A stretch of DNA of 64,000 nucleotides from a phage: NCBI GenBank assembly GCA_014687725.1, contig GCA_014687725.1_4094.1; one strand, given 5' to 3'. A program made the position numbers and the translations under genes. A model generated the notes under the pieces. It was not told where the DNA came from, did not search any database, and worked only from the letters and a program-made list of their open reading frames with translations. Shown piece after piece: positions 40,780-55,297 of this stretch (its first letter is position 1; every line of letters starts with the position of its first letter).

Positions 40780-40812
40780 ACTTACATCAACCACTGATAA
40801 GGAAACATTAAA

Positions 40813-41088
40813 ATGCGGATTCTACTGACAGCTAACGAAATCGAACAAGTACTGACTACTAACCTGGAAGACTGGAAACGTGAAGCAGATATCCAGGCGG
40901 TTCAACGGCTTAACGATGAGTTAACGCCGGATGACTTAAGCAAGATTGTAGATCCTCAATTCTACGAAGATATCCACGACACCGCGTTAAGCGTCGAGGA
41001 TGTACTAGATAAGCACTACATTGATATTGATTTGCAGGTTTACGGTCGTAAAAACTTTATCACTATTCACGACATTTACAATAATTAA
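40813..41088 (+). CDS. hypothetical acidic protein
   Basis: ATG after AAGGAAACATTAAA. Confidence 0.55.
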   Translation: MRILLTANEIEQVLTTNLEDWKREADIQAVQRLNDELTPDDLSKIVDPQFYEDIHDTALSVEDVLDKHYIDIDLQVYGRKNFITIHDIYNN

Positions 41089-41174
41089 GTATTGACAAAG
41101 TATCTTAGTACTGTATAATAGTTTACATCGAGAGGGGGAATGGTTCCCCTCCTAACAAAGAGAGAGAAATAAAA

Positions 41175-41357
41175 ATGGCTAAATGCACTATCTGTAAGAA
41201 AGAAATCGTATTAGTTCCAAGTGCCCGTGAACGTGCCGCTCGGTTCGGTGGCAAACCGTCAGACTATACAAAAATGTTTACTGTCCATGCAGCTTGCCAG
41301 GTAGCAAAACGTTCACAAGAAAGCGTAGAATTAATGCGTAAACTTTCCAAAAAATAA
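41175..41357 (+). CDS. hypothetical small protein
   Basis: Promoter + hairpin + GAGAGAGAAATAAAAATG. Confidence 0.5.
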   Translation: MAKCTICKKEIVLVPSARERAARFGGKPSDYTKMFTVHAACQVAKRSQESVELMRKLSKK

Positions 41358-41445
41358 GTATTGACAAAGTATCTTAGTACTGTATAATAGTTTACATCAA
41401 GTGAGGGGAAACGGTTCCCCTCCTAACAAAGAGAGAGAAATAAAA

Positions 41446-41769
41446 ATGGCTATGATCCTTGCCCAGAAAGTAGAACTGAAAATTGTAACCTCCTTTGACA
41501 TTAAAGTTAATCGGTGGACTGATTCACACGGCAATACTTACCACTCTTGCTACGTGTCTGCGTTAATTGGTGATCGTTGGGAAGACCTGGGACATGAAAC
41601 CTTTACATACGGTTACGGCACACAAGGCGAATACACGGGCTTGGAGATCATTAAAGAAACCGTTATAGGTTTCAACCCGAAAGAAACAGTTATTCACCGC
41701 ATCGAGGAAGAGATCAACAAAGAAATAACAGTTCGATACTACGATGTAAAACGTAAGAAAGATATGTAA
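41446..41769 (+). CDS. hypothetical protein, paralog of 34893-35237
   Basis: Start moved to MAMILAQ; duplicated promoter/leader with 41175 gene. Confidence 0.55.
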   Translation: MAMILAQKVELKIVTSFDIKVNRWTDSHGNTYHSCYVSALIGDRWEDLGHETFTYGYGTQGEYTGLEIIKETVIGFNPKETVIHRIEEEINKEITVRYYDVKRKKDM

Positions 41770-41864
41770 TAGAATCCATTTAAAGTACTATTTGACATTG
41801 CCCAGATAGTACTTTATAATAGACTCTAACTTGTAGTACTAACTCAACTAATAGGATGTATACC

Positions 41865-42260
41865 ATGATTACTAAATTCTACGCTACCCGTGAAGCTGCC
41901 CGTATTGTTGCACGCGAGGAAGGAGCAGCATTTAAAGACATGGGCAAAGATGCACCGAAAGGCCAACGCTGGGCCGTACAGTTCAAAGAGATCTCTGATA
42001 TTGTGAATTCACCTGAGCCAGTACTAACAGCAGCAGAACTAAAACGAGCGGATTTACTGGCGTCAATACTTGATGCACAAGATGAGTTTATCGCTGATTC
42101 TGATATCAAAGTACAGACAAACCATACCGCTTGGACTCACGCGGATCACCTGGCAAACCTGAAGCGTCCAAGTGAACTGGTACGCAACCAGAAAGAGATC
42201 CGACACGACCGTAAGGGTAATCGTGTAACAGTATACAGTAAACGCCGCCAGGTTATCTAA
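41865..42260 (+). CDS. hypothetical protein, paralog of 29549-29815
   Basis: Start moved to second ATG (AGGA upstream). Confidence 0.55.
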   Translation: MITKFYATREAARIVAREEGAAFKDMGKDAPKGQRWAVQFKEISDIVNSPEPVLTAAELKRADLLASILDAQDEFIADSDIKVQTNHTAWTHADHLANLKRPSELVRNQKEIRHDRKGNRVTVYSKRRQVI

Positions 42261-42282
42261 TAACTTGCAGTACTAACAACAC

Positions 42283-42307
42283 GGCGGGATCAGTTCCCGC
42301 CTTTTTT
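42283..42307 (+). terminator. intrinsic terminator
   Basis: GGCGGGA-tcagt-TCCCGCC + TTTTTT. Confidence 0.65.
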
Positions 42308-42321
42308 ATAGGACAAACAAA

Positions 42322-42576
42322 ATGATTAAGGTTCAACTATATAAAGATAATATCTTGCGGGTACACTATAAAGCCCCTCAGAGAATCATCACAAAGGCCG
42401 TACAGCTTGCTAATGAGTTTATTAATGGTAACCTATTACCAAGGAAGTTAAGCAACGGAAAACTGCGTGTAATCGATGTAGACACTAACAACAGAATAGT
42501 AATTGAGAACACAGGAAAGATAAACCTATATGAACACCAACAATATAATAAGAAAATAAAACTAATATCACGTTGA
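42322..42576 (+). CDS. hypothetical protein
   Basis: ATG after GGACAAACAAA. Confidence 0.5.
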   Translation: MIKVQLYKDNILRVHYKAPQRIITKAVQLANEFINGNLLPRKLSNGKLRVIDVDTNNRIVIENTGKINLYEHQQYNKKIKLISR

Positions 42577-42629
42577 CAGTACTCAATTGTTTTAGTACTA
42601 TGTACATATACCAACACGGGAGAAACAAA

Positions 42630-42848
42630 ATGAAATTATCTAAAATCGAAAAGAAAACTATTGATGAAGCAGTTAAGCACGGTTATACCTTTCGTAATGA
42701 TTCACATTTTACCAATTTTCAACAAGGGTATCGTACTATTAAAAAACTCATTGACAAAGGTTTATTAGTTGAAGTCAATAACGGCAATGGTATTGAGTAT
42801 CAACCAACACAAGACGCATTTTATTTTAAGAAATATAATATTATCTAA
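42630..42848 (+). CDS. hypothetical protein, tandem duplicate pair member
   Basis: Promoter TTGACA/17/TACTAT and leader duplicated at 42849-42905. Confidence 0.5.
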   Translation: MKLSKIEKKTIDEAVKHGYTFRNDSHFTNFQQGYRTIKKLIDKGLLVEVNNGNGIEYQPTQDAFYFKKYNII

Positions 42849-42905
42849 TTGACAGTACTCAAATGTTTTAGTACTATATGTACATACCAACACGGGGAAA
42901 ACAAA

Positions 42906-43148
42906 ATGATTACTTTAGAAAAACGTATCAAAGAAACTACATCGCTGGTGGAACTGTTAACAGTACTGAAATGCCGTACTACTCGGTTTAGTACACCGGA
43001 CTTTATTAATATGGTTGATGTTAACGGTCGTTATCGCATTGCAGTAGAACAAGGAACAGCGAAAGTATTCAGTACTAAAAACACTAAGGAAGTGATTCAT
43101 GCTGTAAGTGTTAAAAAAGTAGTTGCCATTGATAGTAAAGTACTGTAA
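42906..43148 (+). CDS. hypothetical protein, tandem duplicate pair member
   Basis: Same promoter/leader as previous gene. Confidence 0.5.
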   Translation: MITLEKRIKETTSLVELLTVLKCRTTRFSTPDFINMVDVNGRYRIAVEQGTAKVFSTKNTKEVIHAVSVKKVVAIDSKVL

Positions 43149-43179
43149 GATAGTTTCATTAACTCAAGGAGAACATGCA

Positions 43180-43764
43180 ATGCGTAATTATACTAAATTC
43201 ATCCGTACCCTGTCAGAAATGGAAACCAACAAAGAGATCCTTTCAGCTTGTCGGTTAGCTGGTCTGGAGATCATCGGTGCGGGTTCTTCCCGTATTGTAT
43301 TCGCTTTAAATGATCGGTTAGTGATCAAGGTCGCGAATTGTGATGCGGGTGTAGAACAAAATGAAACTGAATGTAAGGTATGGAATTTTTTAGATTATGA
43401 CCGCCCTCAATTGAAACAGTACTTTGCAAAGGTGCATATGCATTTATGCGATCCTGATAATATGTTTATCGTTATGGATCGGTTGAGTACTGCAAGTAAA
43501 GGCAGTGTAAAGCACGTAAACGCGTGCAATGAATTAAAGTACAATATTAAACGTAATGCCATTGAACGCCAGCACCGCTTTGCTGATGCACTACAACACG
43601 TTGATGATACATTATCAACACTAACGATAAGAGATATCAGAAAACAGAATATCGGCCAGGATCGTAATGGCCTTATTAAAGTACTTGATTACGGTTTAAC
43701 CCGCAATATCTGGAATCAGTACTATAAAAAGCGTGATGTAGAAGCAAGTAAGGTAACACGATAA
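43180..43764 (+). CDS. protein-kinase-like protein (atypical Ser/Thr kinase fold)
   Basis: IIGAGSSRIVF (Gly-rich loop), LVIKV (beta3 Lys), RDIRKQNIG (catalytic loop), KVLDYG (DFG-like); AAGGAG SD. Confidence 0.55.
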   Translation: MRNYTKFIRTLSEMETNKEILSACRLAGLEIIGAGSSRIVFALNDRLVIKVANCDAGVEQNETECKVWNFLDYDRPQLKQYFAKVHMHLCDPDNMFIVMDRLSTASKGSVKHVNACNELKYNIKRNAIERQHRFADALQHVDDTLSTLTIRDIRKQNIGQDRNGLIKVLDYGLTRNIWNQYYKKRDVEASKVTR

Positions 43765-43777
43765 AAAAGATTAAAAA

Positions 43778-43812
43778 AGGGATTGACTCCGGTCAGTCCC
43801 TTTGCTATTATA
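43778..43812 (+). promoter_or_regulatory. terminator/promoter element (copy 6)
   Basis: GGGATTGACTCCGGTCAGTCCC + TTTGCTATTAT. Confidence 0.55.
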
Positions 43813-43984
43813 TATTCATTGAGAGATAACTCACTGACCCATAGGGTGCGGAAGTGTATCTATTATATAAGTATTCAGTACTGAAAACTATTTTAAAAAA
43901 GTACTTGCAATGTACTTAGAATCAAGTATAATGTTTTACATAGAGAGGGGGAAATGGTTCTCCCTGGTAATAAGGAATAAAATC

Positions 43985-44206
43985 ATGACTACAATGACTT
44001 GCATTTACGCTTCCAATCTTCTGAATGATGCGGCCTTTAATGTTGATTCAGAATATCAATGTTATCGGGATGAAAATAAAAAAGTTTTTGTAGTTGATAA
44101 TAATGGTTTCCATATTGAATTACAATCCGGTTTCACTGGTGTTGATGGTAAATCAGTGTGGGGCGTACAGGATGATAAAGGCACATATCATTTTAAACGT
44201 AATTAA
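43985..44206 (+). CDS. hypothetical early protein
   Basis: Start moved to MTTMTC downstream of leader hairpin. Confidence 0.5.
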   Translation: MTTMTCIYASNLLNDAAFNVDSEYQCYRDENKKVFVVDNNGFHIELQSGFTGVDGKSVWGVQDDKGTYHFKRN

Positions 44207-44290
44207 GTATTGACAAAGTATATCAGTACTGTATAATAGTTTACATCAAGGGGAGAATAGTTCTCCCCGATACTAAAAGGAAACAAAATT

Positions 44291-44563
44291 ATGTCCAGCT
44301 ACTCCGCTACTATGATCATTAAAGATATGAACGGTAATCCTACTTCTGCTGGTGGATCATTTGGAAACATTAATTTAGATGGTCGGTTATCCATGCAATC
44401 AGCCATCGATGCAGCGAAAGAAGTTTTTAAGAATGAATGTACTGTTAGTAAGCTGGATTATATGGGATTCGCTATCGAGAAAACTAATCGTTTTGTGAAC
44501 TACAAAAATCCACTGATGATTGATACTAACCTGAAAGCTAACGAAGTGGGGTACTTATTATGA
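44291..44563 (+). CDS. hypothetical early protein
   Basis: Promoter + hairpin + AAAGGAAACAAAATTATG. Confidence 0.55.
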   Translation: MSSYSATMIIKDMNGNPTSAGGSFGNINLDGRLSMQSAIDAAKEVFKNECTVSKLDYMGFAIEKTNRFVNYKNPLMIDTNLKANEVGYLL

Positions 44564-44751
44564 CAGTAGAAGAAGTTAAAAAAGTACTGGCAGTACTACG
44601 CTATCATAATCATTGCAAGGTGAAGAATGATCCTGATTATGTTGATTCATCCCTGGAGGAAGACACATTAAACGCAATAAGCCATATGCAAACATTAGCA
44701 AAGCGTATGACCGAAAAGAATAGACCGGACTATATCGGAAATAAAATTTAA
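44560..44751 (+). CDS. hypothetical early protein
   Basis: ATGA overlap with previous. Confidence 0.5.
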   Translation: MTVEEVKKVLAVLRYHNHCKVKNDPDYVDSSLEEDTLNAISHMQTLAKRMTEKNRPDYIGNKI

Positions 44752-44837
44752 AAAGTACTTGCATTGTAGTTAGATTAACGTATAATGTTTTACATAGAGC
44801 GGGGGAACTATTCCCCCGCCAGTCCAGGAGATACACC

Positions 44838-45101
44838 ATGAACACTATCGAAATCACTATCAATGCACACGTATACGACAACGTAGTACTGCAAACTACT
44901 ATGACCGCTAATGATACCAGTACTTTGCGGAATACTGTTATTAGTGCCGTATGTGCCGCTATCGGTGATGTCGCCCTGGAAAATGCAGAACACATCAACA
45001 ACGGTTTCACTATGTGCAAACGTGATAACGCAAAACATATCATCGTAGAAGGTTACGGCGGTGTAGAATATAATCTTTATATGAAAAAAGTACTTGCATA
45101 A
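44838..45101 (+). CDS. hypothetical early protein
   Basis: Promoter + GCGGGGGAA-cta-TTCCCCCGC hairpin + AGGAG. Confidence 0.55.
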   Translation: MNTIEITINAHVYDNVVLQTTMTANDTSTLRNTVISAVCAAIGDVALENAEHINNGFTMCKRDNAKHIIVEGYGGVEYNLYMKKVLA

Positions 45102-45168
45102 TAACTAAAACAAAGTATAATGTTTTGCATAGGGGGAGATATCCTCCCCCACTAAAAGGAGTAATAAA

Positions 45169-45393
45169 ATGGCTAACTTTGATGAACTGATGCGGGAAGT
45201 AGCTAACCTGGCAGAAGAGAAGAAATCATTCGATTCTATCTATAACACCGCTCACCGTGATTCAGTACTGGCATGTACTCAGGATCAAAAAGATGAACTA
45301 ATCGCCACATATCATGAAGCATGGAAGTACTACCGCCAATGGGAGAAAGAAGAAAGCGAGTCTACCATCAACGGCATCAATAATCTAATCTAA
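45169..45393 (+). CDS. hypothetical early protein
   Basis: Promoter + hairpin + AAAGGAGTAATAAAATG. Confidence 0.55.
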   Translation: MANFDELMREVANLAEEKKSFDSIYNTAHRDSVLACTQDQKDELIATYHEAWKYYRQWEKEESESTINGINNLI

Positions 45394-45469
45394 AAGTTTT
45401 ATTTCAGTACTATTGACATAGCTTGATAGTACTGATGTAATAACTTTACTAACTACAAGGGGAAACATA

Positions 45470-45727
45470 ATGGAACAGTTCACACAATATCGGGTAAATC
45501 CTCAAGCTATGGCCTACGTAGAAGACCATAAAACGTTACCAGTACTAACACCAATTAAAGGCCATATCTATCGTGCAATGTCATGGAATACGGCCCAGGA
45601 TGGATATACTACCGCTGGCGTGGGTATGTATTGCGGGAATGGTGAATGGTTTGATCCAAATAATCCGGTAGCCATTGACAGTACTGAAAAAATGAAATGG
45701 GCCGACTACATCGAAGATATTTCATAA
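45470..45727 (+). CDS. hypothetical early protein
   Basis: Type-2 promoter; ATG after AAGGGGAAACATA. Confidence 0.55.
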   Translation: MEQFTQYRVNPQAMAYVEDHKTLPVLTPIKGHIYRAMSWNTAQDGYTTAGVGMYCGNGEWFDPNNPVAIDSTEKMKWADYIEDIS

Positions 45728-45816
45728 AACTATTTGACAGTACTAACCAGTAATGTATAATGTTTTACATAGAGCGGGGGAATAGTTCTCCCGCCAATAG
45801 TTTGGAGTAAAACATT

Positions 45817-46017
45817 ATGTCTATCGCTATCGCCCTGGTTGAAGTACTGAAAGAAGCTAAAGCCAACCTTATCGATGTACAGATTAAGGAATTACAAAAT
45901 GGTTTAATCGGCTGTACTTGTACCGCTGGTGGAGCGGCAGACTATCGGGAATTCGAATCACTTGAATCGATGGTCCGTTATCTTACCATGATCGTAGAAG
46001 ATTGGAGAATCATCTAA
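45817..46017 (+). CDS. hypothetical early protein
   Basis: Promoter + hairpin + TGGAGTAAAACATTATG. Confidence 0.5.
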   Translation: MSIAIALVEVLKEAKANLIDVQIKELQNGLIGCTCTAGGAADYREFESLESMVRYLTMIVEDWRII

Positions 46018-46035
46018 CAAAAAAGAATAAAAAAA

Positions 46036-46069
46036 GGGATTGACTCCGGTCAGTCCCTTTGCTATTATA
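46036..46069 (+). promoter_or_regulatory. terminator/promoter element (copy 7)
   Basis: GGGATTGACTCCGGTCAGTCCC + TTTGCTATTAT. Confidence 0.55.
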
Positions 46070-46263
46070 TACGCATAGACAAAAACTAGCCCACTGGGTG
46101 CAGGAGTGTATCTAAAATATATAGTTAATAACGGTGAGTAACTATCTGCTGGTGGGGTGAAAACTATTAATAAAAAAAGTATTGACAAAGTATATCAGTA
46201 CTGCAATAATGTATCTCGTAGGGCGGCAATGGTGCGACGGCCCACAAAGTTAGGAGATTCAAA

Positions 46264-46596
46264 ATGAGTACTTCAATCGCTATCGTTAAAGCTTTCATCC
46301 GTACCAATGTTTCATCTGTATTCATCGACGGTCTGGATCGGGAAGTAGAATACTCAATCATTATCGCACAGACTGCAAACGGTGCTCGGTATATCCTTAA
46401 TGATAGTGAAGCAAATCACTACTACTTCACTAAAGCTACTGGCTTTAAACGCATCGATGCTGACGTAGTATACACTAAGATGAATAAGCTGGTAGACAAG
46501 ATTAACGCGAAAGGTACTATCGATTTACAGTACTGGACCGAAACCGATCCAGAATATGGATCTCACCGCTACCTGAATCCAGGTATTAAAATGTAA
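46264..46596 (+). CDS. hypothetical early protein
   Basis: ATG after TTAGGAGATTCAAA. Confidence 0.55.
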   Translation: MSTSIAIVKAFIRTNVSSVFIDGLDREVEYSIIIAQTANGARYILNDSEANHYYFTKATGFKRIDADVVYTKMNKLVDKINAKGTIDLQYWTETDPEYGSHRYLNPGIKM

Positions 46597-46685
46597 AAAG
46601 TACTTGCATAGTACTTAGAATCAAGTATAATGTTTTACATAGAGAGGGGGAAATGGTTCTCCCTCCTAAATTAAGGAGTTTTATC

Positions 46686-47087
46686 ATGACCTTCTCAATC
46701 AATTCCTTCGCTGACGTTTTAGTACTGGCTCGGACTTTCGGTAAAGATGCACTGGAGTACGCTGTAAGTAATGGTACTATCCAACCGGAACAGTGCCGCA
46801 TCATTGGAAACTGCAAACGTTGGGCGGTATCCAATACTATTGCACTGGAAAACTTCCACGATGGCAACAATGAATATTCTGTTGATGTAGTATTCGAAGC
46901 CGTTGATCTCGGCGGTATCTATAATACTAACCTGAATGATGTGCGTATCGTTCGCACGGGGTTCGGTGCTTATGATGTATCTATTCGTGAAGCTATGAAC
47001 ACCGGATACATTAGCAAGGACTTACTTGCTCACATCATGCAGCTGTGTACGGAACGTAACGAAGCACGCACTATCTTAGGACTGTAA
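46686..47087 (+). CDS. hypothetical early protein
   Basis: Start moved to MTFSINS after AAGGAG. Confidence 0.55.
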   Translation: MTFSINSFADVLVLARTFGKDALEYAVSNGTIQPEQCRIIGNCKRWAVSNTIALENFHDGNNEYSVDVVFEAVDLGGIYNTNLNDVRIVRTGFGAYDVSIREAMNTGYISKDLLAHIMQLCTERNEARTILGL

Positions 47088-47155
47088 GCGTTACACATCA
47101 CCAAACATCATAGGCCGCCTTGTAGCGGCCTTAACTATATCAGGAGGGCATACAT

Positions 47156-47365
47156 ATGTTCTATACAGTATACAGCGTTCTAGGTACTATTGCAGGCGTA
47201 CATGATAACGTCAATGATGCTATGCGTACAGTACTGCAACAGGTTCCACTAAAGCCTAAGACCATTAAGCAGATGACAGCACGACTAACCAGGGCGACCG
47301 ATGGCGTGGAAGTATGGCAGGACTACGGGGATACACAGATAATCGTTAGCGTAACGAAGGATTAA
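47156..47365 (+). CDS. hypothetical protein
   Basis: ATG after AGGAGGG; upstream hairpin AGGCCGC-cttgta-GCGGCCT. Confidence 0.5.
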   Translation: MFYTVYSVLGTIAGVHDNVNDAMRTVLQQVPLKPKTIKQMTARLTRATDGVEVWQDYGDTQIIVSVTKD

Positions 47366-47392
47366 TGCGTAAAGGGATCTAGTACTGATTCA

Positions 47393-47459
47393 GAAAAAAG
47401 TCAAGGCGTTTTTAAAATTATGCGTTAAAAAAATGCATAGGTAATCCCTTGACTTTTTT
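47393..47459. promoter_or_regulatory. inverted-repeat regulatory region upstream of family-B array
   Basis: AAAAAAGTCAAGG ... CCTTGACTTTTTT 13-bp inverted repeat, ATGCGTWA direct repeats, promoter-like TTGACT ~30 nt upstream of array. Confidence 0.4.
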
Positions 47460-47614
47460 GAAATAAAAGGGATTGGACTATGGCAAAATGCGTAGGGGGC
47501 TAAAGGGCGGGTAACCTTAGCGACTTCGATAAAGGGGTATTACGAATAAAATGTTATTGACTTTTTATATGAATCGTATAAAATATGATTGATATTAATT
47601 TTAAGGGAGTCCCT

Positions 47615-47812
47615 ATGCGTATTTTAACTAAAGAACAGCACCACGAAAGACTTATCAATAACATGGCTATGATAATGTATAAGTCCCATGACCGTGGTAT
47701 TGCCTATAAGCGTGAATTAATTATGGCACTATTCATTGGAACTAACTTTCAGGAAAGGTATGTCAACGATTGGATTTGGTATTTAATTGAAGATATAACG
47801 AGTAAACTATGA
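47615..47812 (+). CDS. family-B small protein (1/29)
   Basis: Start moved to ATG after AAGGGAG; IGTNFQERYV motif. Confidence 0.55.
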   Translation: MRILTKEQHHERLINNMAMIMYKSHDRGIAYKRELIMALFIGTNFQERYVNDWIWYLIEDITSKL

Positions 47813-48009
47813 AAATGCGTATTTTAAATAAAGAAGAATATCAATCACTGTTACGTAAAAACTTCACAAAGATTTATAATACAGACACACACGTAGAACG
47901 AATGGAGTTATACCTTTTGATTACATTGGGAACAAACTATCAGGGTAGATGGGTGTGGCAATATATGGATACATTGAAAAATAAAATATTGTCCACGAGG
48001 AAACAATGA
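47809..48009 (+). CDS. family-B small protein (2/29)
   Basis: ATGA overlap; LGTNYQGRWV. Confidence 0.55.
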   Translation: MKMRILNKEEYQSLLRKNFTKIYNTDTHVERMELYLLITLGTNYQGRWVWQYMDTLKNKILSTRKQ

Positions 48010-48215
48010 AAACTATAACACGAACCCAATCATACGGTCTTATCTTGAAATACATGGACTTAATGGTGGATATCAGCAAAGACCTGCCTAAAACTGAAAT
48101 TGAAGTTGCAAGAGCAGAGATCCGCATGTTGGCTGTACTGAACACAAACCATCAGGAAGATTATGTTGAAGAATGGATTCGATTTTTAATAGAAGATATT
48201 AAGAGTAAACTATGA
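48006..48215 (+). CDS. family-B small protein (3/29)
   Basis: ATGA overlap; LNTNHQEDYV. Confidence 0.55.
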   Translation: MKTITRTQSYGLILKYMDLMVDISKDLPKTEIEVARAEIRMLAVLNTNHQEDYVEEWIRFLIEDIKSKL

Positions 48216-48427
48216 TTATTATAGAAAACTCATATCAATATACTAAACGCATCGCTGCCAGACAACTTGAAATCCTCATAATATACGAAGAGACTTCTGA
48301 TTTAAACTTAGCCGAGGTATTGGAAAATGAAATACTTTTGGGTGCATTCTTGGGAACAGACTATCAGGAGTATTATGAGGAAAAGTATTTGTCATCTCTA
48401 GAGAAATACATCAGGAGCAAATTATGA
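48212..48427 (+). CDS. family-B small protein (4/29)
   Basis: ATGA overlap; LGTDYQEYY. Confidence 0.55.
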   Translation: MIIIENSYQYTKRIAARQLEILIIYEETSDLNLAEVLENEILLGAFLGTDYQEYYEEKYLSSLEKYIRSKL

Positions 48428-48636
48428 TTATATTAACACCAGAAGAATATAAGAAACGTTTCAATTCTGTCCAGACTGAAATATTACTTATATACCTTTC
48501 AAATGCAGACCTTAACTTATCAAGGGCAATGGAGAAGGATTTACTTATGGGTGCATTTTTGGATACAGACTTTCAGGAGTATTATGTAGGGAAATACTTA
48601 ATTGAACTTCAGAACTACATTAAGAGTAAACTATGA
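48424..48636 (+). CDS. family-B small protein (5/29)
   Basis: ATGA overlap; LDTDFQEYYV. Confidence 0.55.
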   Translation: MIILTPEEYKKRFNSVQTEILLIYLSNADLNLSRAMEKDLLMGAFLDTDFQEYYVGKYLIELQNYIKSKL

Positions 48637-48860
48637 AACATTTAAGTAATATTGAGAAGATGAGAATTATCATTGATGCATTAAACAAATACGATACCCT
48701 TTTACAAATAAAAGGTTTAACTCGATTGGAACACAAGATAAACACCACCGATGTACGCATGTTGGCTGTACTGGGGACGAACTTTCAGGAAGAGTATGTT
48801 GTTGCACACATAGTTGCACTCACTAATTACATAATGGACAAATGTAATGAACATCATTAA
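48633..48860 (+). CDS. family-B small protein (6/29)
   Basis: ATGA overlap; LGTNFQEEYV. Confidence 0.55.
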   Translation: MKHLSNIEKMRIIIDALNKYDTLLQIKGLTRLEHKINTTDVRMLAVLGTNFQEEYVVAHIVALTNYIMDKCNEHH

Positions 48861-49071
48861 TAACTTTGAATACGAGGCCCGTGCTAAGAGTGCCAGAAAA
48901 AAAGAGAACACCATTTACTTCACTATGATGTACTTACAATGGACTGAAATTGAAGAAAAGGTTGCTGAAGTATGGATGTTGGAATTCATGGGGACGCAGT
49001 ATCAGAATAGGTTTGCGGGTGAGTATATCAATGTTCTTATGAAACAAATAGAAAGAAAGGAAAAGAACTAA
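48847..49071 (+). CDS. family-B small protein (7/29)
   Basis: MGTQYQNRF motif. Confidence 0.5.
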   Translation: MNIINNFEYEARAKSARKKENTIYFTMMYLQWTEIEEKVAEVWMLEFMGTQYQNRFAGEYINVLMKQIERKEKN

Positions 49072-49229
49072 TGGTTTTCATTAACATATCTGACCAACTC
49101 GATACTAAACTAGAAGTCGAGCAGAGTGAGGGATGGATGCTGTACTTTCTTGGAACTTCTCATCAGAATTTTTATATCCATGAACACATAGTTGCACTCA
49201 AGAATTACATTATGGACAAATGCAAATGA
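49071..49229 (+). CDS. family-B small protein, short member (8/29, 52 aa)
   Basis: Below track cutoff; LGTSHQNFY motif; TAATG coupling. Confidence 0.4.
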   Translation: MVFINISDQLDTKLEVEQSEGWMLYFLGTSHQNFYIHEHIVALKNYIMDKCK

Positions 49230-49483
49230 AATACTTAACACAAGATGAATATTCACTTAGAATTCGAAAGCTCACCCCAGAAGCAAGAGTAATCTACGAT
49301 GACCCCACCCTTACATGGAACCAAATGCGAGCTAAAGTTAATGAGCTATGGTTGCTGTACTTTATGGGGACTCAATATCAAGATAAGTTTTGCAAAGAAT
49401 TTGTCGATCAATTAATGAATGTTATACAGGATAAACTAGATGAATATTGGCTCGCAAAACATGAAGACTTTATCAGGAGTTGA
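49220..49483 (+). CDS. family-B small protein (9/29)
   Basis: MGTQYQDKF; start may be ATG at 49226. Confidence 0.5.
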   Translation: MQMKYLTQDEYSLRIRKLTPEARVIYDDPTLTWNQMRAKVNELWLLYFMGTQYQDKFCKEFVDQLMNVIQDKLDEYWLAKHEDFIRS

Positions 49484-49712
49484 GTATCAAACTGCCCTCT
49501 TCTCTCTTATTAACACCCTTAGAAAAAACAATGCATTACATGGTGCACCTGAAGTGGATGTTATCAACGGTGATGTTTATCTTATGAAATTCATTGGAAC
49601 AAACTATCAAGATCTGTTCATTCAACGATACTTGGCAGCATTAAGAAACCAAATCCAATATAAAACCCGTCAAGCCCAAAGAGAATGGAAGAGACAATGC
49701 GACAAAGACTAA
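49440..49712 (+). CDS. family-B small protein (10/29)
   Basis: IGTNYQDLF; start uncertain (alternative ATG ~49461). Confidence 0.45.
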   Translation: MNIGSQNMKTLSGVEYQTALFSLINTLRKNNALHGAPEVDVINGDVYLMKFIGTNYQDLFIQRYLAALRNQIQYKTRQAQREWKRQCDKD

Positions 49713-49945
49713 ATCACAAAATGTATTGTAAACTATTACAAACACTGGCACAGAAACACTATGACACCGTATCTGAAATATTACCCTATGATATCATGCG
49801 TTTAATTCATAGTGAGGCCGAGATGCTTGTACTGATGAGAGGGACTGATAAAACAGCAATAGCCAGATCGATTGAGCAATATATTGATGCACACTGCCAA
49901 CACATGAGAACCGAAATCTGGAGGAAAGAGAATGATAATCCTTAA
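49685..49945 (+). CDS. family-B-like small protein (11/29)
   Basis: Divergent (RGTDKTA); start uncertain (alternative ATG ~49697). Confidence 0.45.
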   Translation: MEETMRQRLNHKMYCKLLQTLAQKHYDTVSEILPYDIMRLIHSEAEMLVLMRGTDKTAIARSIEQYIDAHCQHMRTEIWRKENDNP

Positions 49946-50147
49946 TGAGTATCAGTATCATTGGAGGTTACAAACTATCAAATCAAAAGTGTATAGTATT
50001 GTGTTAAACAAATCTATTGCACAAGAGGACAAATGTGTTATAATAGCTGAAATGAAGTTGGGTGTATTCGTAGGGACAAACTATCAAAACATCTACACTG
50101 ACGTATTATTAAGTTCCTTACGTAACAAGGTGGTATCCAAAATATGA
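49932..50147 (+). CDS. family-B small protein (12/29)
   Basis: VGTNYQNIY. Confidence 0.55.
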   Translation: MIILNEYQYHWRLQTIKSKVYSIVLNKSIAQEDKCVIIAEMKLGVFVGTNYQNIYTDVLLSSLRNKVVSKI

Positions 50148-50362
50148 GAAATTTACAAGGCTTTGAATACATCAGACTCCTGAAAACATGTGGAAGCAGA
50201 AGGAGAATGATATCAAGCGATAAGAGCATCCAAGCTAACCTTAAGCACGCACTAGTAACTGAACTCTATGTAGGTGCACTCTTAGGCACAAACTATCAAC
50301 AAATGTATGTAGATCTATGGATTGACGCTCTACAGAAAGAGGTTAAAAGTAAATGCAAATGA
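50144..50362 (+). CDS. family-B small protein (13/29)
   Basis: ATGA overlap; LGTNYQQMYV. Confidence 0.55.
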   Translation: MRNLQGFEYIRLLKTCGSRRRMISSDKSIQANLKHALVTELYVGALLGTNYQQMYVDLWIDALQKEVKSKCK

Positions 50363-50571
50363 TTAATTTAAGTAAAGACGAATTTTATGTTATACTGGCG
50401 AAAACTTATCCAGCACGTAAGGCCGTTTATGATAGTCACATTATTGAACCCTCAAAGAAGTTGATTTTAGTAAATGAGATAAAGATGCTTTCAGTCTTAG
50501 GAACAAACTATCAAGAGAATGCTGTACTGATGTTAATTGATGCCCTCCAGCGAGAGGTTAAACGTAAATGA
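50353..50571 (+). CDS. family-B small protein (14/29)
   Basis: LGTNYQENAV. Confidence 0.55.
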   Translation: MQMINLSKDEFYVILAKTYPARKAVYDSHIIEPSKKLILVNEIKMLSVLGTNYQENAVLMLIDALQREVKRK

Positions 50572-50798
50572 AAATGATTCATTTAACTTACCATGAATAT
50601 CAAAAACGTTTAAATGCATCCAGAGATATAAGGATTCAAATATTCAATAACAAAAGATTGAAGCCTGATATCAGAAAAATCAAAATTATAGAAGCAGAGT
50701 TATGCAACTTTCTAGGGACCAACTATCAGGCAGGTAAGGTAAAAAACTATCTTAGAGAACTAATGAATAGTATTGAAAATAAATGTAAGGGTAATTAA
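50568..50798 (+). CDS. family-B small protein (15/29)
   Basis: ATGA overlap; LGTNYQAGKV. Confidence 0.55.
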   Translation: MKMIHLTYHEYQKRLNASRDIRIQIFNNKRLKPDIRKIKIIEAELCNFLGTNYQAGKVKNYLRELMNSIENKCKGN

Positions 50799-50799
50799 C

Positions 50800-51039
50800 A
50801 TGAAAATGATTAAATTATCTCAAGCAAAATATAAAGAACGCCTGGTGAAAATTGCACCTGGACTTAATGAAATCCATCACGGAGAAGTCATTAAACACGG
50901 AAATAAGATGATTATGAAACTTGAGTTAAAGGTGGGTGCATTCATAGGAACAAACTATCAGGAGTATTATGTAGATGAATACATAATCGCACTTAAGAGA
51001 TACATTGGAAGAAAACTATATCTACAAACTAAAGAATAG
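50800..51039 (+). CDS. family-B small protein (16/29)
   Basis: Start moved to MKMIKL; IGTNYQEYYV. Confidence 0.5.
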   Translation: MKMIKLSQAKYKERLVKIAPGLNEIHHGEVIKHGNKMIMKLELKVGAFIGTNYQEYYVDEYIIALKRYIGRKLYLQTKE

Positions 51040-51068
51040 TATTGAAAATAAATGTGAGGTTGATGAAC

Positions 51069-51332
51069 ATGCAAATGATCAATTTAAGTAAAGATGAATA
51101 TACCGAGCGTATGACAAAAATTACGCACAAACGTAATACAATCTATCACAACCCAGAAATTCAACACAGTAAGAAAATGATTATGATGCGTGAGTTAAAG
51201 ATGGGTGTATTCTTAGGAACAAACTATCAAGATACAGAAGTAAATCGCTTAATCGCGGAGTTACTACTGGAAATCAGAGGTAAGCTGTACTTTCATCAAA
51301 TGACCCAACCACTGAGGTGTACTAAGAAATGA
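51069..51332 (+). CDS. family-B small protein (17/29)
   Basis: Start moved to MQMINL; LGTNYQDTEV; upstream ~45-bp segment duplicated from 50761-50810. Confidence 0.5.
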   Translation: MQMINLSKDEYTERMTKITHKRNTIYHNPEIQHSKKMIMMRELKMGVFLGTNYQDTEVNRLIAELLLEIRGKLYFHQMTQPLRCTKK

Positions 51333-51544
51333 TCAACATCACATTGCAAGAAAGATTCATCCGAATCAACTATGCAATTACCAAATTAGATGCTACTATA
51401 GGATTCCAAAGTCTACCATACAAAACCAGATTGTTATTAGAGTGTGAAGCTAAGTTGGGTGTACTGTTAGGGACGCAACACCAACAACGATATGTGGAAA
51501 TCTGGATTGACCTTTTAACCCAAAATATATATGAGAGAATGTAA
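51329..51544 (+). CDS. family-B small protein (18/29)
   Basis: ATGA overlap; LGTQHQQRYV. Confidence 0.55.
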   Translation: MINITLQERFIRINYAITKLDATIGFQSLPYKTRLLLECEAKLGVLLGTQHQQRYVEIWIDLLTQNIYERM

Positions 51545-51775
51545 ATGCAAAATGAAATGATATACTTAACGAATGAAGAATTTCAAGAGAAGATGTTAAA
51601 AACCAAAAACATTACTCTTAAGTTCGTTCCAAATCAATCAATATCTGAAGTATCTGCAAATGTATTGTTTCAGAAGCTACCATACGTTCTTGGAACTGAT
51701 AAACAAGAATTTATGGTTCAAAATATGATTGAACATCTTATAATGAGTATTAAGGAAAAAGTTAATGCAAAATGA
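51545..51775 (+). CDS. family-B small protein (19/29)
   Basis: MQNEMIYLT...; LGTDKQEFMV. Confidence 0.55.
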   Translation: MQNEMIYLTNEEFQEKMLKTKNITLKFVPNQSISEVSANVLFQKLPYVLGTDKQEFMVQNMIEHLIMSIKEKVNAK

Positions 51776-52019
51776 AATGATATACTTAACCTATAATGAA
51801 TACGTCGAGAGATTAGTTCGTGCCAAGAGATATACCAATAAACGTCCAATTGACCTAAACCAAACCCCAGCAGAAAGGAGTGCAGAAGTATTATTCCAAT
51901 CACTACCATATCTTCTGGGAACTGATAGACAAGAGGAATATGTTGCACGTATGATTAGATATCTTAAAATCACTATTAAGGAAAAAGTAAATGCAAATGA
52001 AATACTTAACAGACGATGA
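51765..52019 (+). CDS. family-B small protein (20/29)
   Basis: Same MQNEMIYLT N-terminus as previous (recent duplicate); LGTDRQEEYV. Confidence 0.55.
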   Translation: MQNEMIYLTYNEYVERLVRAKRYTNKRPIDLNQTPAERSAEVLFQSLPYLLGTDRQEEYVARMIRYLKITIKEKVNANEILNRR

Positions 52020-52242
52020 GTTAAAAGAACGACTAATTAAATCAAGAAAACATACAAATCAACTTCCAAACGACACAAACAAGTCTCCAGCGGAAAGGAG
52101 TGCAGAAGTTTTATACATTCAACTCATGTACTTTCTTGGCACTGACAGACAAGAGTATTACATTGAAAGTATGCTTCGATATCTTAAATTCTCTATAAAG
52201 GAAAAGATACATGATCAAGTATTTAAAAATCCTAACAGTTAA
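51991..52242 (+). CDS. family-B small protein (21/29)
   Basis: LGTDRQEYYI; overlaps previous by ~29 nt. Confidence 0.5.
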   Translation: MQMKYLTDDELKERLIKSRKHTNQLPNDTNKSPAERSAEVLYIQLMYFLGTDRQEYYIESMLRYLKFSIKEKIHDQVFKNPNS

Positions 52243-52453
52243 TGAATATCATAAGATTGTAATGAAAACTAATAGTGCTTACGCTAAAAAATCAAACCCA
52301 AAGTACATACTGGAACACACATTTGAAGAACGTCAATTAGCTTTAGTTGAAGCAAAACTTCTTGCACTATTAGGAACAAACTATCAGGAAGAATACAATA
52401 GAAAACTAATATACCTTTTAACTAAACATATAAGAAAAAGAAAAAATGCATGA
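52211..52453 (+). CDS. family-B small protein (22/29)
   Basis: LGTNYQEEYN. Confidence 0.5.
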   Translation: MIKYLKILTVNEYHKIVMKTNSAYAKKSNPKYILEHTFEERQLALVEAKLLALLGTNYQEEYNRKLIYLLTKHIRKRKNA

Positions 52454-52680
52454 AACACTTGACAGATGATGAACATGGGCTTATAGTAATGGATGTAATC
52501 AACATCGAATACAAAAAGTTGATACGCTATCGTTGTTATGAAGATAAGCAACTCGTTCTAGCAGAACAGAAGTTGTTTCGACTCTTAAACACAAACTACC
52601 AAGCACAATACGAAGAATCGTATATGTACCTTTTGGCGAGGAAAGCAAAAAGAGATTATGAAAATTTTAAGCAAAGGTGA
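52450..52680 (+). CDS. family-B small protein (23/29)
   Basis: ATGA overlap; LNTNYQAQYE. Confidence 0.55.
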   Translation: MKHLTDDEHGLIVMDVINIEYKKLIRYRCYEDKQLVLAEQKLFRLLNTNYQAQYEESYMYLLARKAKRDYENFKQR

Positions 52681-52879
52681 TTCAGTAATATTACTTATAG
52701 AGAGTTCAAGTAAATTCTTAAACATAACACTGTCTGATATAGATGAAGATGACAAAGAAGTACTGAGAGCAGATTTAAGAGTACTGTTACATATCGGAAC
52801 AAACCTACAAGAAGAATATGTAGAGTGCTACATCAATGAACTTAAAGAATCAGTACTGAGAAAATGCAAATGCAAATGA
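52658..52879 (+). CDS. family-B small protein (24/29)
   Basis: IGTNLQEEYV. Confidence 0.5.
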   Translation: MKILSKGDSVILLIESSSKFLNITLSDIDEDDKEVLRADLRVLLHIGTNLQEEYVECYINELKESVLRKCKCK

Positions 52880-53097
52880 AAATCATTACCGATGTAGAAT
52901 ACCTAACAATCATAAATGGACTGTTTTTGAAGCTCTTCGTCATTAACACATCAGATATACCAGATATGGATAAAATTATTAAGAGAAATGAAGTCTATGT
53001 TCTAGCTACCCTTGGAACGAACTATCAAGAACACGACATTAAAGATTATATTAATACACTTAAACGAGCTATTGAACTAAAATGCCAAAACCACTAG
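52864..53097 (+). CDS. family-B small protein (25/29)
   Basis: LGTNYQEHDI. Confidence 0.5.
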   Translation: MQMQMKIITDVEYLTIINGLFLKLFVINTSDIPDMDKIIKRNEVYVLATLGTNYQEHDIKDYINTLKRAIELKCQNH

Positions 53098-53297
53098 GAA
53101 CAGCAGAATACATTGAACTCATGGGATTACACTTCTCATCCTTTCAGAAACTTATGCGAGAATCAAAGAATGATTTAGAATATACCATCAGAGGTTCCGA
53201 TTTAAGAATGCTTCTCACCCTAGACACAGATTCCCAAGAGCGATTTGTCAATGAGCATATTAGAGCACTTTTAATGGAAATTAAAAGTAAACTATGA
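53082..53297 (+). CDS. family-B small protein (26/29)
   Basis: LDTDSQERFV. Confidence 0.5.
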   Translation: MPKPLGTAEYIELMGLHFSSFQKLMRESKNDLEYTIRGSDLRMLLTLDTDSQERFVNEHIRALLMEIKSKL

Positions 53298-53509
53298 AGA
53301 TAATATCAAACCAAGAGTACTTGGCACTATTCAGGAAGAATAATCACAAATATATGGCACTTGATTCAAGAACTGATATAAGTGAACTTGAAAAAAATCT
53401 TTTGCGTTCAGATATGATAGTACTGACACTCTTAGGAACACAGCATCAAGAGAGAACTGTTAATTCATACATAGGTATTCTTATACAGATAGTACAGGAA
53501 AAGATATGA
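53294..53509 (+). CDS. family-B small protein (27/29)
   Basis: ATGA overlap; LGTQHQERTV. Confidence 0.55.
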   Translation: MKIISNQEYLALFRKNNHKYMALDSRTDISELEKNLLRSDMIVLTLLGTQHQERTVNSYIGILIQIVQEKI

Positions 53510-53727
53510 GAATCATAACACAACAAGATATTCTTAAGTTCACAAGGGTTCATGCATCTGAATTTGATGCTATATTATCAAAAAGTTACAATGACCCTTA
53601 TACACAAGATGTACATTACAGTGAATTATGGATGTATATACTTTTAGGTACAAATAAGCAAGAGCAAGCCGTACAGAAGTATTTGACAGCTTTACGTGAT
53701 GCTACTGCTAATGGAGTATGTGTTTAA
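53506..53727 (+). CDS. family-B small protein (28/29)
   Basis: ATGA overlap; LGTNKQEQAV. Confidence 0.55.
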   Translation: MRIITQQDILKFTRVHASEFDAILSKSYNDPYTQDVHYSELWMYILLGTNKQEQAVQKYLTALRDATANGVCV

Positions 53728-53728
53728 T

Positions 53729-53971
53729 ATGAAAGTACTGACAGAACTAGAAATGTATCATAGATTTAATAAGTACTATCATTTACTTAAGCCTATACAG
53801 AGGATTAAATGTCCATTTGAAGAGAAACAGGTTTTAATCTATGAGCACAAGTTCTTTGTATCATTAGGTACAGATCAACAAGAGTACTATTTGACGTTGT
53901 ACTTGATTACATTAATAGATTTAATTCACTATAAAACCAAACAAGCTAATAAAGAGAAATATGAAAACTAA
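53729..53971 (+). CDS. family-B small protein (29/29)
   Basis: Start moved to MKVLTELEMY; LGTDQQEYYL. Confidence 0.5.
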   Translation: MKVLTELEMYHRFNKYYHLLKPIQRIKCPFEEKQVLIYEHKFFVSLGTDQQEYYLTLYLITLIDLIHYKTKQANKEKYEN

Positions 53972-54305
53972 TATACAACTCAAGGTATATAAATCATTTG
54001 AACATACATATATCAAAAGTAGTCTATGTAGAGATGTAATGGATTACAAGGGTAAGCCATTCACAATTACCTATGATTCTTATGTTAGTGATTTATATAT
54101 ATCATTTGTTAATTACGAAAATAAAATATACAAGCACGTTGATATTAAAGATTTAAGTACTTTATCACCAGAGGAATACTTTCAGGAATCATTAGTATGG
54201 GATTTAGAGTTTCCTATGCCATTAGTACATAAGATGATAGTACTAATGAAAGAATCTAAACAGGAGCCTAATGGTGATTATGAAGAACACACAGTTGAGT
54301 ATTAA
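53961..54305 (+). CDS. family-C protein (EEYFQxSLVxD motif)
   Basis: Motif EEYFQESLVWDLEFP. Confidence 0.55.
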   Translation: MKTNIQLKVYKSFEHTYIKSSLCRDVMDYKGKPFTITYDSYVSDLYISFVNYENKIYKHVDIKDLSTLSPEEYFQESLVWDLEFPMPLVHKMIVLMKESKQEPNGDYEEHTVEY

Positions 54306-54675
54306 AAGTACTGATAATACTAAGAGTTATACAAGCTCAAGTACTGTGACAATCGAAGTGAATTCTATTAATGCTGGTAATGCAGTAGATAAGTTCTTTA
54401 TTGCTCAAGGGTACAGGAAAGATATTCATCAATATTGTTCAGTATATGGGGAGTACAATTCTACTGAAGATATAATTTATTGGTCAACACATCAAGATTA
54501 TATAACTAAAATTGGCGTTCCAGATGTTAGTACTTTATCTGAAGAAGAATACTTTCAGTACAGCTTAGTACATGATGTACCTATACCTTTAGGGTTAATC
54601 AAGGGTATGCAGGAAGAGGTTCATAAGCTTAAATCCATGAGTTCAGGTACTTTCATTAGAACAGTGCAATACTAG
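54280..54675 (+). CDS. family-C protein
   Basis: Motif EEYFQYSLVHDVPIP; start taken at MKNTQL. Confidence 0.5.
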   Translation: MKNTQLSIKSTDNTKSYTSSSTVTIEVNSINAGNAVDKFFIAQGYRKDIHQYCSVYGEYNSTEDIIYWSTHQDYITKIGVPDVSTLSEEEYFQYSLVHDVPIPLGLIKGMQEEVHKLKSMSSGTFIRTVQY

Positions 54676-54734: not shown

Positions 54735-54980
54735 ATGTTAAATTTTTTAAATTTCCTTATCGTTTTGTGTATTGTTCTTGGGATTGCACCATTTGTATTG
54801 TATTTCATGGATTCAGATGAAATGCAGAAGATGAATTGCACAAGGACAGGACAGAGTAGAGAAGAGACGATTCTTATGCCTGTTACGGTTATTGTTAACA
54901 ACATGCCCATTACAAACATGGTCCCTACCCTAACGACAACGTACCAGTACTCTTGTGCTGACGGAGAGAGGTGGAGATGA
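54735..54980 (+). CDS. small membrane protein (N-terminal TM helix)
   Basis: Upstream TTGACA/17 nt/TATAGT; hydrophobic N-terminus. Confidence 0.5.
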   Translation: MLNFLNFLIVLCIVLGIAPFVLYFMDSDEMQKMNCTRTGQSREETILMPVTVIVNNMPITNMVPTLTTTYQYSCADGERWR

Positions 54981-55297
54981 AATTTAATATAGCAAAAACA
55001 TCGAGTATATGTATTTTTGGTTATGCAGAAGAGTTAGGTGATATTGACATTCTTTTGTACAAAAAGGATGGTGTTATGCATTTCAAGTACCAGGATGAAG
55101 AGGCAGACAATTATCCTTTACCTAATTTAGTACAAATGCAGGAAGATGAATTATTCCAGTACAGCTTAATATACGACATTGATATTTGCACGATGCCAGT
55201 ACTAATTAGTATTCAAAAAGTGATGCTCGATATGTATGATAAGCTAATACAAGGTACATCAGGGAGAATCATTGAAATCGATATACAAGACAATTAA
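54971..55297 (+). CDS. family-C protein
   Basis: Motif DELFQYSLIYDIDIC. Confidence 0.55.
   Translation: MEMKFNIAKTSSICIFGYAEELGDIDILLYKKDGVMHFKYQDEEADNYPLPNLVQMQEDELFQYSLIYDIDICTMPVLISIQKVMLDMYDKLIQGTSGRIIEIDIQDN

Follow-up and report, generated by a model that had tools for sequence, protein, structure and literature searches.

The host-takeover module of phage SPO1 and the pre-early genes of phage T5 are sets of small genes that lie in long terminal repeats. The MGF110, MGF360 and MGF505 families of African swine fever virus (ASFV) and the terminal families of poxviruses are tandem paralogs placed by terminal repeats, and they control host range or immune evasion. The colicin DNase immunity proteins Im7 and Im9 are small four-helix proteins. 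We examined a phage locus that shares traits with all of these systems: an array of small tandem paralogs (family B) in a 64,000-nucleotide stretch of contig GCA_014687725.1_4094.1 (NCBI GenBank assembly GCA_014687725.1), hereafter the window. Further points of comparison come from phage PA5oct, which relies on host RNA polymerase and transcribes the genes of its direct terminal repeat (DTR) early (PMC7318152), from Bacillus phage G, in which about 35 zinc-ribbon proteins form a lineage-specific expansion with a suggested DNA-binding or transcription-factor role (PMC7824862), and from the arrays of orphan immunity genes at polymorphic toxin loci (PMC3482391).

Like the early gene sets of SPO1, T5 and PA5oct (PMC7318152), the locus consists of dense, small, inward-reading genes of unknown function at a genome end; its putative promoters are of host sigma type, and its genes would be expressed first. 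Unlike those sets, the array lies just outside the repeat and is a single paralogous family instead of a group of unrelated genes. With the ASFV and poxvirus families it shares diverged tandem paralogs beside terminal repeats, variable copy number and a conserved core with a variable fringe; those viruses, however, belong to a different realm, their proteins are unrelated to these much smaller products of about 70 amino acids (aa), and the array appears to form one operon with overlapping stops and starts. The comparison is one of functional analogy only, under which the array might have a host-range role. Phage G, also a jumbo phage with at least 30 copies of one tiny domain of unproven function, is the closest phage precedent for scale, but it belongs to another phage group, and its domain is a zinc ribbon, whereas family B is predicted to have four helices and carries no metal- or DNA-binding signature. 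Finally, the immunity arrays likewise combine products of about 70–90 aa, four helices, tandem diverged paralogs and one scaffold with variable binding surfaces; family B differs from them in having no sequence or structure match to immunity proteins and no adjacent toxin genes, and in being confined to phages. In its workings the array would come closest to the ASFV and poxvirus families and to the early gene sets of SPO1, T5 or PA5oct. It belongs among the lineage-specific expansions of small early phage genes, and its notable traits are its size, a confident fold without informative relatives and its placement at a DTR junction.

The array and its protein family

The array region (6.4 kb) aligned over its full length with Escherichia phages vB_EcoM_G17 (G17) and Sharanji at 97.4% identity, which identifies the window, by alignment, as part of an Asteriusvirus jumbo coliphage genome. 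The same stretch matched 36 phage records, all of them Escherichia or Salmonella jumbo phages in or near Asteriusvirus (PBECO4, 121Q, phAPEC6 and fEgEco12 among them), and in all records every gene beneath the match was annotated as 'hypothetical protein'. An earlier reading of the window from its letters alone (the original prediction) had described about 29 tandem paralogs with two more downstream and had not recognised the family. The 29 open reading frames (ORFs) at 47585–53971 and the two at 55272–55726 were all present on the + strand, and neither the GenBank records nor Pfam or the PDB gave the family a name.

The 31 proteins aligned over about 75 columns, in which a Thr was invariant and a Gln and a Leu were nearly so; the consensus reads M-x-x-L...E-Y...E......L-G-T-N-x-Q-E-x-Y-V..x-I..L...I..K. 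A profile of all 31 members, scanned against the six frames of the window, matched exactly 31 places, all on the + strand, with no weaker matches outside the members. Because that scan is circular, we ran a leave-one-out test, in which 30 of the 31 members were recovered (E between 1e-7 and 2e-20). An independent profile, phrog_4148 of the PHROG collection, matched 9 of the 10 members tested (E 7e-9 to 6e-22), mostly over profile positions 1–72 of 74. Profile searches of this kind had been proposed with the original prediction, and both supported it. This PHROG entry (with phrog_28039, which gave weaker matches) represents the same family, already clustered from 121Q, PBECO4 and related genomes, but with no function, structure or context attached.

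Of the roughly 29 array members first proposed, 28 are firm by these profiles and one (gene 11) is doubtful. This ORF, which starts at 49685 or 49697 and ends at 49945, was neither recovered by leave-one-out nor matched by phrog_4148. It keeps the G-T of the motif (RGTDKT), with a 6-residue insertion and without the conserved Gln, and it is conserved in all six phages compared. The hhalign comparison with the other members gave P=0.002 and a probability of 13%, with E..L..GT(D/N) aligned in register. AlphaFold, run on the single sequence, gave an all-helical model of low confidence (predicted local distance difference test, pLDDT, 61.6). As the hhalign match is weak and the model of low confidence, we count the ORF as a doubtful, very diverged family member.

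Gene 1 most likely starts at ATG 47615, because a Shine-Dalgarno sequence (AAGGGAG, 47603–47609) lies upstream of it and the ATG at 47585, the start first proposed and probably wrong, is unconserved in fEgEco12 and CMSTMSU; the latter ATG also overlaps the −10 box of a putative promoter. The annotations of G17, 121Q and fEgEco12 begin the gene at the ATG equivalent to 47615. The contiguous array is then 29 abutting + strand genes at 47615–53971. Its junctions had been described as mostly ATGA-coupled: the exact ATGA overlap was found at only 12 of the 28 junctions, although 26 of them overlap or abut. Member proteins have isoelectric points (pI) of 4.5–9.9 and net charges of −6 to +9.

We modelled the gene 13 protein with AlphaFold2 from an alignment of the 31 paralogs only. 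The model was very confident (pLDDT 97.8; predicted template modelling score 0.83), with helices at residues 6–14, 17–25, 31–45 and 52–71 and a lone beta-bridge from residue 2 to Thr49. In this model the LGTNYQ motif makes up the loop that joins helices 3 and 4 and continues into the start of helix 4; the N-terminal M-x-x-L is pinned to the motif loop. The Gly would mark the end of helix 3, and Thr-x-x-Gln has what we take to be the form of an N-terminal capping box. The motif therefore looks structural rather than catalytic, since it is modelled as the loop and cap that start helix 4, and we found no candidate for a conserved catalytic or metal-binding constellation in the family. The fold in the model is made by residues that are all conserved, namely the N-terminal M-x-x-L, E41, L47-G48-T49-x-x-Q52 and the helix-4 hydrophobics. 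In helix 4 the conserved columns are hydrophobic and spaced 3–4 residues apart (columns 57, 60/61, 64, 68 and 72), and the intervening polar columns are the most substituted between orthologs (21–33%). What is conserved thus looks like fold, and what varies looks like surface. The family product is, as modelled, a small (about 65–90 aa) soluble four-helix protein.

Searches for relatives led back to the family itself. None of 10 members had a Pfam-A match above the gathering threshold, and the scattered unrelated sub-threshold matches (E>=0.018) were not common to the members; none of the family homologs in databases carried a precomputed Pfam domain. The family profile found no relative among PDB sequences. 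A Foldseek search with the model, another check proposed earlier, gave nothing better than E=3 in the PDB and, among predicted viral structures, only the same family (in 121Q, PBECO4, UB and slurp01). No profile match or informative fold match was obtained to the solved anti-CRISPR, anti-restriction, anti-CBASS/Thoeris and anti-sigma proteins of the PDB. For helix-turn-helix (HTH) domains there was no Pfam match among the 10 members and no HTH protein among the top structural matches. HMMER against 1.84 billion cluster representatives returned just 91 proteins at E<=0.001. They include P0057, a protein of 1771 aa that seems repetitive and unrelated to the family and that we set aside as spurious. 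Indexed searches with the family profile and a broadened profile (A3) hit only proteins on contigs of about 345–383 kb or on short metagenome contigs, and A3 brought in neither a further group nor any protein with an annotation. The array was absent from complete RefSeq Escherichia coli genomes. NCBI lists many members under 'hypothetical protein [Escherichia coli]', on 343–359 kb contigs (e.g. P0099, P0117, P0143), which look like whole Asteriusvirus genomes in draft assemblies, present by carrier state or contamination.

More distant members were found in a second genus and in a metagenome. Klebsiella phage Muenster (Alcyoneusvirus, RaK2-like) has 8 members in small scattered groups, with orthologs in RaK2 and K64-1, and a divergent relative on a metagenomic contig has 17, of which 14 are consecutive. 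In both, the profile matches only the C-terminal half (helix 3, loop, helix 4). A tblastn search with one Klebsiella-phage member returned its own orthologs only, this search being too insensitive for paralogs. Some of the distant members (about 117–122 aa; Muenster 18580–18930, P0071, P0091) extend about 50 residues past the four-helix domain at the C-terminus, with a recurring pattern C-x-(V/Y)-(T/Y)-I ... N-N-Y. In our literature searches family B was nowhere described, and neither were its layout as an array, its place at the edge of the DTR, its fold or its pattern of evolution; the sole related remark was that about 10% of RaK2 proteins are paralogues (PMC3622015).

Paralogs within the genome share 13–56% protein identity (median 25%), the maximum being that of gene 20 with its closest paralog, gene 21. 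At the DNA level, copies are 60–86% identical over short stretches only, and the best long repeat (226 nt, 74%) joins genes 16 and 17, a tandem duplicate pair with 47% protein identity. The duplicated junction fragments noted originally (50761–50810 and 51030–51075) are part of this repeat, but at only 74%; the supposedly near-identical N-termini of the genes at 51545 and 51765 are only 85% identical over 47 nt. The nearest paralog is at most two positions away for 16 of 29 members, where permutation gives 3.9 members on average (p<1e-4); such closeness of nearest paralogs is the mark of local tandem duplication.

We then compared the array across six phages. Nearly every copy has a syntenic ortholog in other Asteriusvirus genomes at 60–100% identity. 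Clustering gave 36 ortholog groups, 20 of them in all six phages and 5 of them singletons, with copy numbers of 31, 31, 31, 30, 30 and 25 (the last in 121Q). The ratio of non-synonymous to synonymous substitution (dN/dS) over concatenated orthologs was 0.28 against G17, 0.32 against PBECO4, 0.35 against 121Q and 0.36 against fEgEco12. These comparisons show, as far as sequence can, that the array genes are real and under purifying selection. They also show, on the same footing, that local tandem duplication had built up the array by the time the genus diversified, because the paralogs are diverged whereas the orthologs are syntenic at 60–100%, and that most copies have since been retained individually. 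The ongoing duplication proposed earlier does not agree with paralogs at no more than 56% identity and a best DNA repeat of 74% over 226 nt.

Present change appears to consist of loss, replacement and allele exchange. An example is the pair of genes 9 and 10 (49226–49712). Their proteins are 72% and 69% identical to the G17 orthologs, but 82–92% (gene 9) and 92–93% (gene 10) identical to those of fEgEco12 and CMSTMSU. Identity to Sharanji is likewise 69–72%, despite 97% overall. Synonymous divergence (dS) for these two genes is 0.38–0.58 (gene 9 against G17, 0.38), compared with about 0–0.06 for most other genes. This points to a recombinant patch and to allele exchange between co-circulating phages.

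Terminal repeat junction and expression signals

In the alignment of G17 with the window, position 1 of G17 falls at 47517 and its end (370817) at 27043, and we therefore place a DTR of 20.5 kb between these positions. G17_00001 and G17_00614 are the same gene at an offset of 350,149 bp, that is, the G17 record holds both DTR copies. The inner boundary (47517|47518) is the same base as in fEgEco12, whose DTR of 20,993 bp was determined with PhageTerm and restriction digests (PMC13070987). The array adjoins the DTR and lies outside it: in both the window and fEgEco12 the first array start codon is 98 bp beyond the inner boundary. In the records of vB_Ec-M-J, BF17, E9.1, CRJP21 and ELP-22 the array match begins at about 20–23 kb, consistent with an array just after a left repeat of about 20–21 kb (the repeat lengths being those of vB_Ec-M-J and fEgEco12). 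In Muenster, the first two genes past its 20,030-bp DTR are family members. From the outer edge of the DTR through the array and beyond, all genes of the window are on the same strand and read inward; those of the DTR read toward the array.

A putative sigma-70-like promoter lies at the head of the array. Its position is conserved in 121Q, fEgEco12 and CMSTMSU, and PBECO4, which has different upstream DNA, nevertheless carries TTGACA-17-TATGAT at the array head. In the DTR, 19 + strand sites agree with the sigma-70 consensus TTGACA-N16-18-TATAAT at 11 or more of its 12 positions, and 12 of these sites are perfect (spacer 16 or 17). The density of matches at this stringency is 0.93 per kb in the DTR, compared with 0.16–0.24 in the arrays (family B and a second array, family A, described below) and 0.18 in the left 22.5 kb. 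The G17 annotation has about a dozen terminators between DTR genes and none in the array, and our + strand terminator scan inside the array gave a single weak terminator-like site. The DTR is thus laid out as what appear to be strong early units of one or a few genes, with individual promoters and terminators, whereas the array has one moderate promoter for about 30 genes. One 11/12 match falls inside gene 23, either by chance or as a candidate promoter from which the last third of the array could be transcribed.

Related phages depend on host RNA polymerase. In CBB, RpoD-like promoters cluster in the short-ORF region beside the repeat, where the authors suspect early genes (PMC5259590). For phAPEC6 a sigma factor is encoded and a phage RNA polymerase is not listed (PMC7247149). 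From these signals we infer early expression of the array. The phAPEC6 virion proteome (62 proteins, including one of 4.7 kDa) contains no product of gp461c–gp489c, where gp467c–gp489c correspond to the array and the rest to its downstream neighbours (PMC7247149).

Feature coordinates and neighbouring genes

Coordinates of family B and of the surrounding features are given below.

Table 1. Features of the window around the family B array; E values are from the leave-one-out profiles and from phrog_4148.
Feature	Coordinates	Strand	Leave-one-out E	phrog_4148 E	Remarks
Family A array	22556..26779	+			18 abutting genes of ~60 aa
Sigma-70-like site, head of family A	22502..22530				10/12 matches
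DTR	27043..47517				20.5 kb; all genes +
Putative sigma-70-like promoter, head of family B	47557..47584	+			TTGACT-16-TAAAAT; scan and direct reading; 40 bp past DTR boundary
Gene 1	47615..47812	+	2.8e-13		
Gene 2	47809..48009	+	4.7e-14	7e-19	
Gene 3	48006..48215	+	4.3e-18		motif variant LNTNHQ
Gene 4	48212..48427	+	1.2e-13	1.2e-18	closest paralog gene 5, 52%
Gene 5	48424..48636	+	9.7e-18		motif variant LDTDFQ
Gene 6	48633..48860	+	6.6e-18		no ortholog in 121Q
Gene 7	48847..49071	+	3.3e-15		
Gene 8	49071..49229	+	1.3e-14		short, 52 aa, lacks N-terminal helices; ortholog group in 3/6 phages compared
Gene 9	49226..49483	+	4.9e-20		in putative recombinant patch
Gene 10	49440..49712	+	7.3e-13		in putative recombinant patch
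Gene 11	49697..49945	+	negative	negative	doubtful/diverged, RGTDKT
Gene 12	49932..50147	+	1.6e-16		
Gene 13	50144..50362	+	4.4e-20		modelled protein
Gene 14	50353..50571	+	1.1e-18	3e-21	
Gene 15	50568..50798	+	6.9e-19		
Gene 16	50800..51039	+	1.7e-20		ATG 50800 per Sharanji/G17 annotation
Gene 17	51069..51332	+	3.5e-20		
Gene 18	51329..51544	+	1.3e-12		
Gene 19	51545..51775	+	1.2e-16		no close ortholog in PBECO4, 121Q, fEgEco12
Gene 20	51765..52019	+	4.2e-18		
Gene 21	51991..52242	+	5.1e-19		
Gene 22	52211..52453	+	9.4e-15	2e-10	
Gene 23	52450..52680	+	1.5e-9		motif variant LNTNYQ
Sigma-70-like match inside gene 23	52459..52487				11/12; TTGACA-17-TATAGT
Gene 24	52658..52879	+	2.1e-16		
Gene 25	52870..53097	+	1.1e-18		
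Gene 26	53082..53297	+	1e-12		motif variant LDTDSQ
Gene 27	53294..53509	+	1.3e-17	3.5e-20	
Gene 28	53506..53727	+	1e-12		
Weak terminator-like site	53554..53570	+			
Gene 29	53711..53971	+	8.1e-12		last of contiguous array
Family C, three genes	53961..54305; 54271..54675; 54971..55297	+			108–134 aa
Gene 30	55272..55490	+	2.3e-12	7e-9	outlying
Gene 31	55460..55726	+	9.8e-8		outlying
Two adjacent paralogs	20122..22471	−			~390–410 aa; beside family A

Gene annotation under the array match is uneven between records. PBECO4 has 17 annotated features there, compared with 31 members by profile, and gene 23 is 100% conserved in Sharanji (locus 24870–25073) and unannotated in that record. A metagenome protein of 154 aa (P0092), which corresponds to window 52211–52680, has lost the stop codon of gene 22 and is an in-frame fusion of genes 22 and 23; we rejected it as a true two-domain protein, as it is only this fusion by stop loss.

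Family A, the second array in the window, has an N-terminal M(N/H)KE(F/Y)Y and a C-terminal LLI(Y/F)RY, and hhalign detected no relationship between it and family B (P=0.07). The end of family A precedes the outer DTR edge by 264 bp, and paralog arrays (families A and B) therefore flank both DTR junctions on a circular or concatemer map. The two − strand paralogs beside family A are rich in G/S/T/N repeats, and their G17 counterparts are described as similar to a 121Q 'putative DNA condensation protein'; in phAPEC6, several proteins of the DNA condensation type are virion components (gp003–gp010, gp549 and gp551). Family C shares the motif S(P/E)EEYFQ(E/Y)SL(V/I).D and sits between the main array and the outlying genes 30 and 31; no relationship to family B was detected with hhalign.

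Possible functions and significance

We regard the coding, structural and evolutionary parts of this account as close to certain. For function, we favour an early, coupled operon of about 30 diversified binders serving host takeover or anti-defence, a statement which, taken whole, we rate at somewhat less than an even chance. On this view some 30 genes of ancient duplication would make up a single polycistronic operon, each copy kept for a role of its own. Host RNA polymerase would transcribe the operon early, starting at the conserved sigma-70-type promoter in front of gene 1 and perhaps also reading through from the repeat, and the genes would be translated as one coupled unit. The products would act in the host cytoplasm as diversified binders on one scaffold, each copy neutralising or redirecting a different host factor (a defence protein or another takeover target). 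The location of the array, the inferred early promoter, the absence from virions and the variable surfaces are all compatible with such a role. A bolder version seems to us rather unlikely. In that version the array would supply a panel of about 30 binders on the four-helix scaffold, a bacterial-virus counterpart of the ASFV and poxvirus terminal families; each conserved copy would neutralise a different host defence or factor, and expression would come from the first unique DNA to follow the terminal repeat into the cell. The DTR junctions of RaK2-like jumbo phages, one with family B and the other with the unrelated array of 18 genes, would then be places of expansion for counter-defence families.

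Several observations weigh against the host-directed operon. The promoter at the array head matches only 10 of the 12 consensus positions, and at a permissive threshold the AT-rich sequence yields 70 promoter-like matches against 71.6 expected after shuffling; because permissive matches are no commoner than in shuffled sequence, only high-stringency or conserved sites carry weight. A dN/dS of about 0.3 indicates moderate purifying selection and not the strong positive selection expected of an acute arms race, and weaker constraint on exposed residues would also explain the variable surfaces. Our literature search found neither functional data for any member nor an Asteriusvirus transcriptome or ribosome profile.

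The purifying selection and the strict conservation of about two thirds of the copies as orthologs in six phages would fit housekeeping equally well. The paralogs might serve the phage's own processes, every copy having its own phage protein or DNA site as partner and working as a small adaptor, chaperone or regulatory subunit. In a genome of about 600 genes they could, for instance, modulate transcription, replication or assembly. The retention of the family in a second genus, Alcyoneusvirus, agrees with this, and the roughly 40% of members that are basic (pI >8.7) could bind nucleic acid. We consider such a role unlikely, however. Neither an HTH nor another nucleic-acid-binding fold was detected, and net charge spans such a range that the members can therefore have no common electrostatic function. 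Viable phages carry anything from 25 to 31 copies, a third of the ortholog groups is dispensable, the proteins were not found in virions, and host-directed genes typically lie where these do, among hundreds of small early-type accessory genes by the DTR (PMC5259590, PMC7318152). The same variation, with 16 of the 36 ortholog groups variable and 121Q managing with 25 copies, would also suit a redundant or near-neutral relic of amplification (a 'frozen accordion') kept by slow loss or for total dosage. The adjacency of closest paralogs is a signature of tandem amplification, and a dN/dS of about 0.3 would be relaxed relative to what one expects of core phage genes. We find this distinctly improbable, since 20 ortholog groups persist in all six phages at a dS of about 0.26–0.6 with non-synonymous change about threefold lower, all 31 copies have kept their reading frames and start codons, their overlaps and the residues that determine the fold, and paralogs at 25% identity are not interchangeable for the dosage of one specific surface.

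Packaging of the proteins in the virion, with ejection alongside the DNA and action before transcription, would suit their small size, the position of the genes near the genome end and the fact that another multi-copy family of the phage, the 'DNA condensation proteins', supplies virion components; it is very improbable given that none of the 62 phAPEC6 virion proteins is an array product, although a protein as small as 4.7 kDa was detected. A degenerate DNA repeat or non-coding feature with incidental ORFs, which a regular spacing of about 215 bp and a high AT content might suggest, is scarcely credible as far as sequence can tell. Similarity is at the protein level, while the DNA repeats are short, all 31 profile matches lie on one strand in open frames, the paralog alignment gives a confident fold, and neither Rfam families nor tRNAs turned up in scans of the window. 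The ortholog dN/dS of 0.28–0.36, well under 1, together with the model at pLDDT 97.8 and the strong profile matches, speaks for a genuine protein family, as the original prediction had assumed.

About 5% of the genes of well-studied jumbo coliphages that are therapeutic candidates thus belong to this one uncharacterised family. The genome map of these phages is sharpened as well, with two unrelated tandem families at the two DTR junctions, in a layout that resembles the host-range genes of large eukaryotic DNA viruses. Should the copies bind host factors, as we propose, they would constitute about 30 ready-made probes for defence and essential functions of E. coli, and the array would be a natural case of one small scaffold diversified to many specificities.

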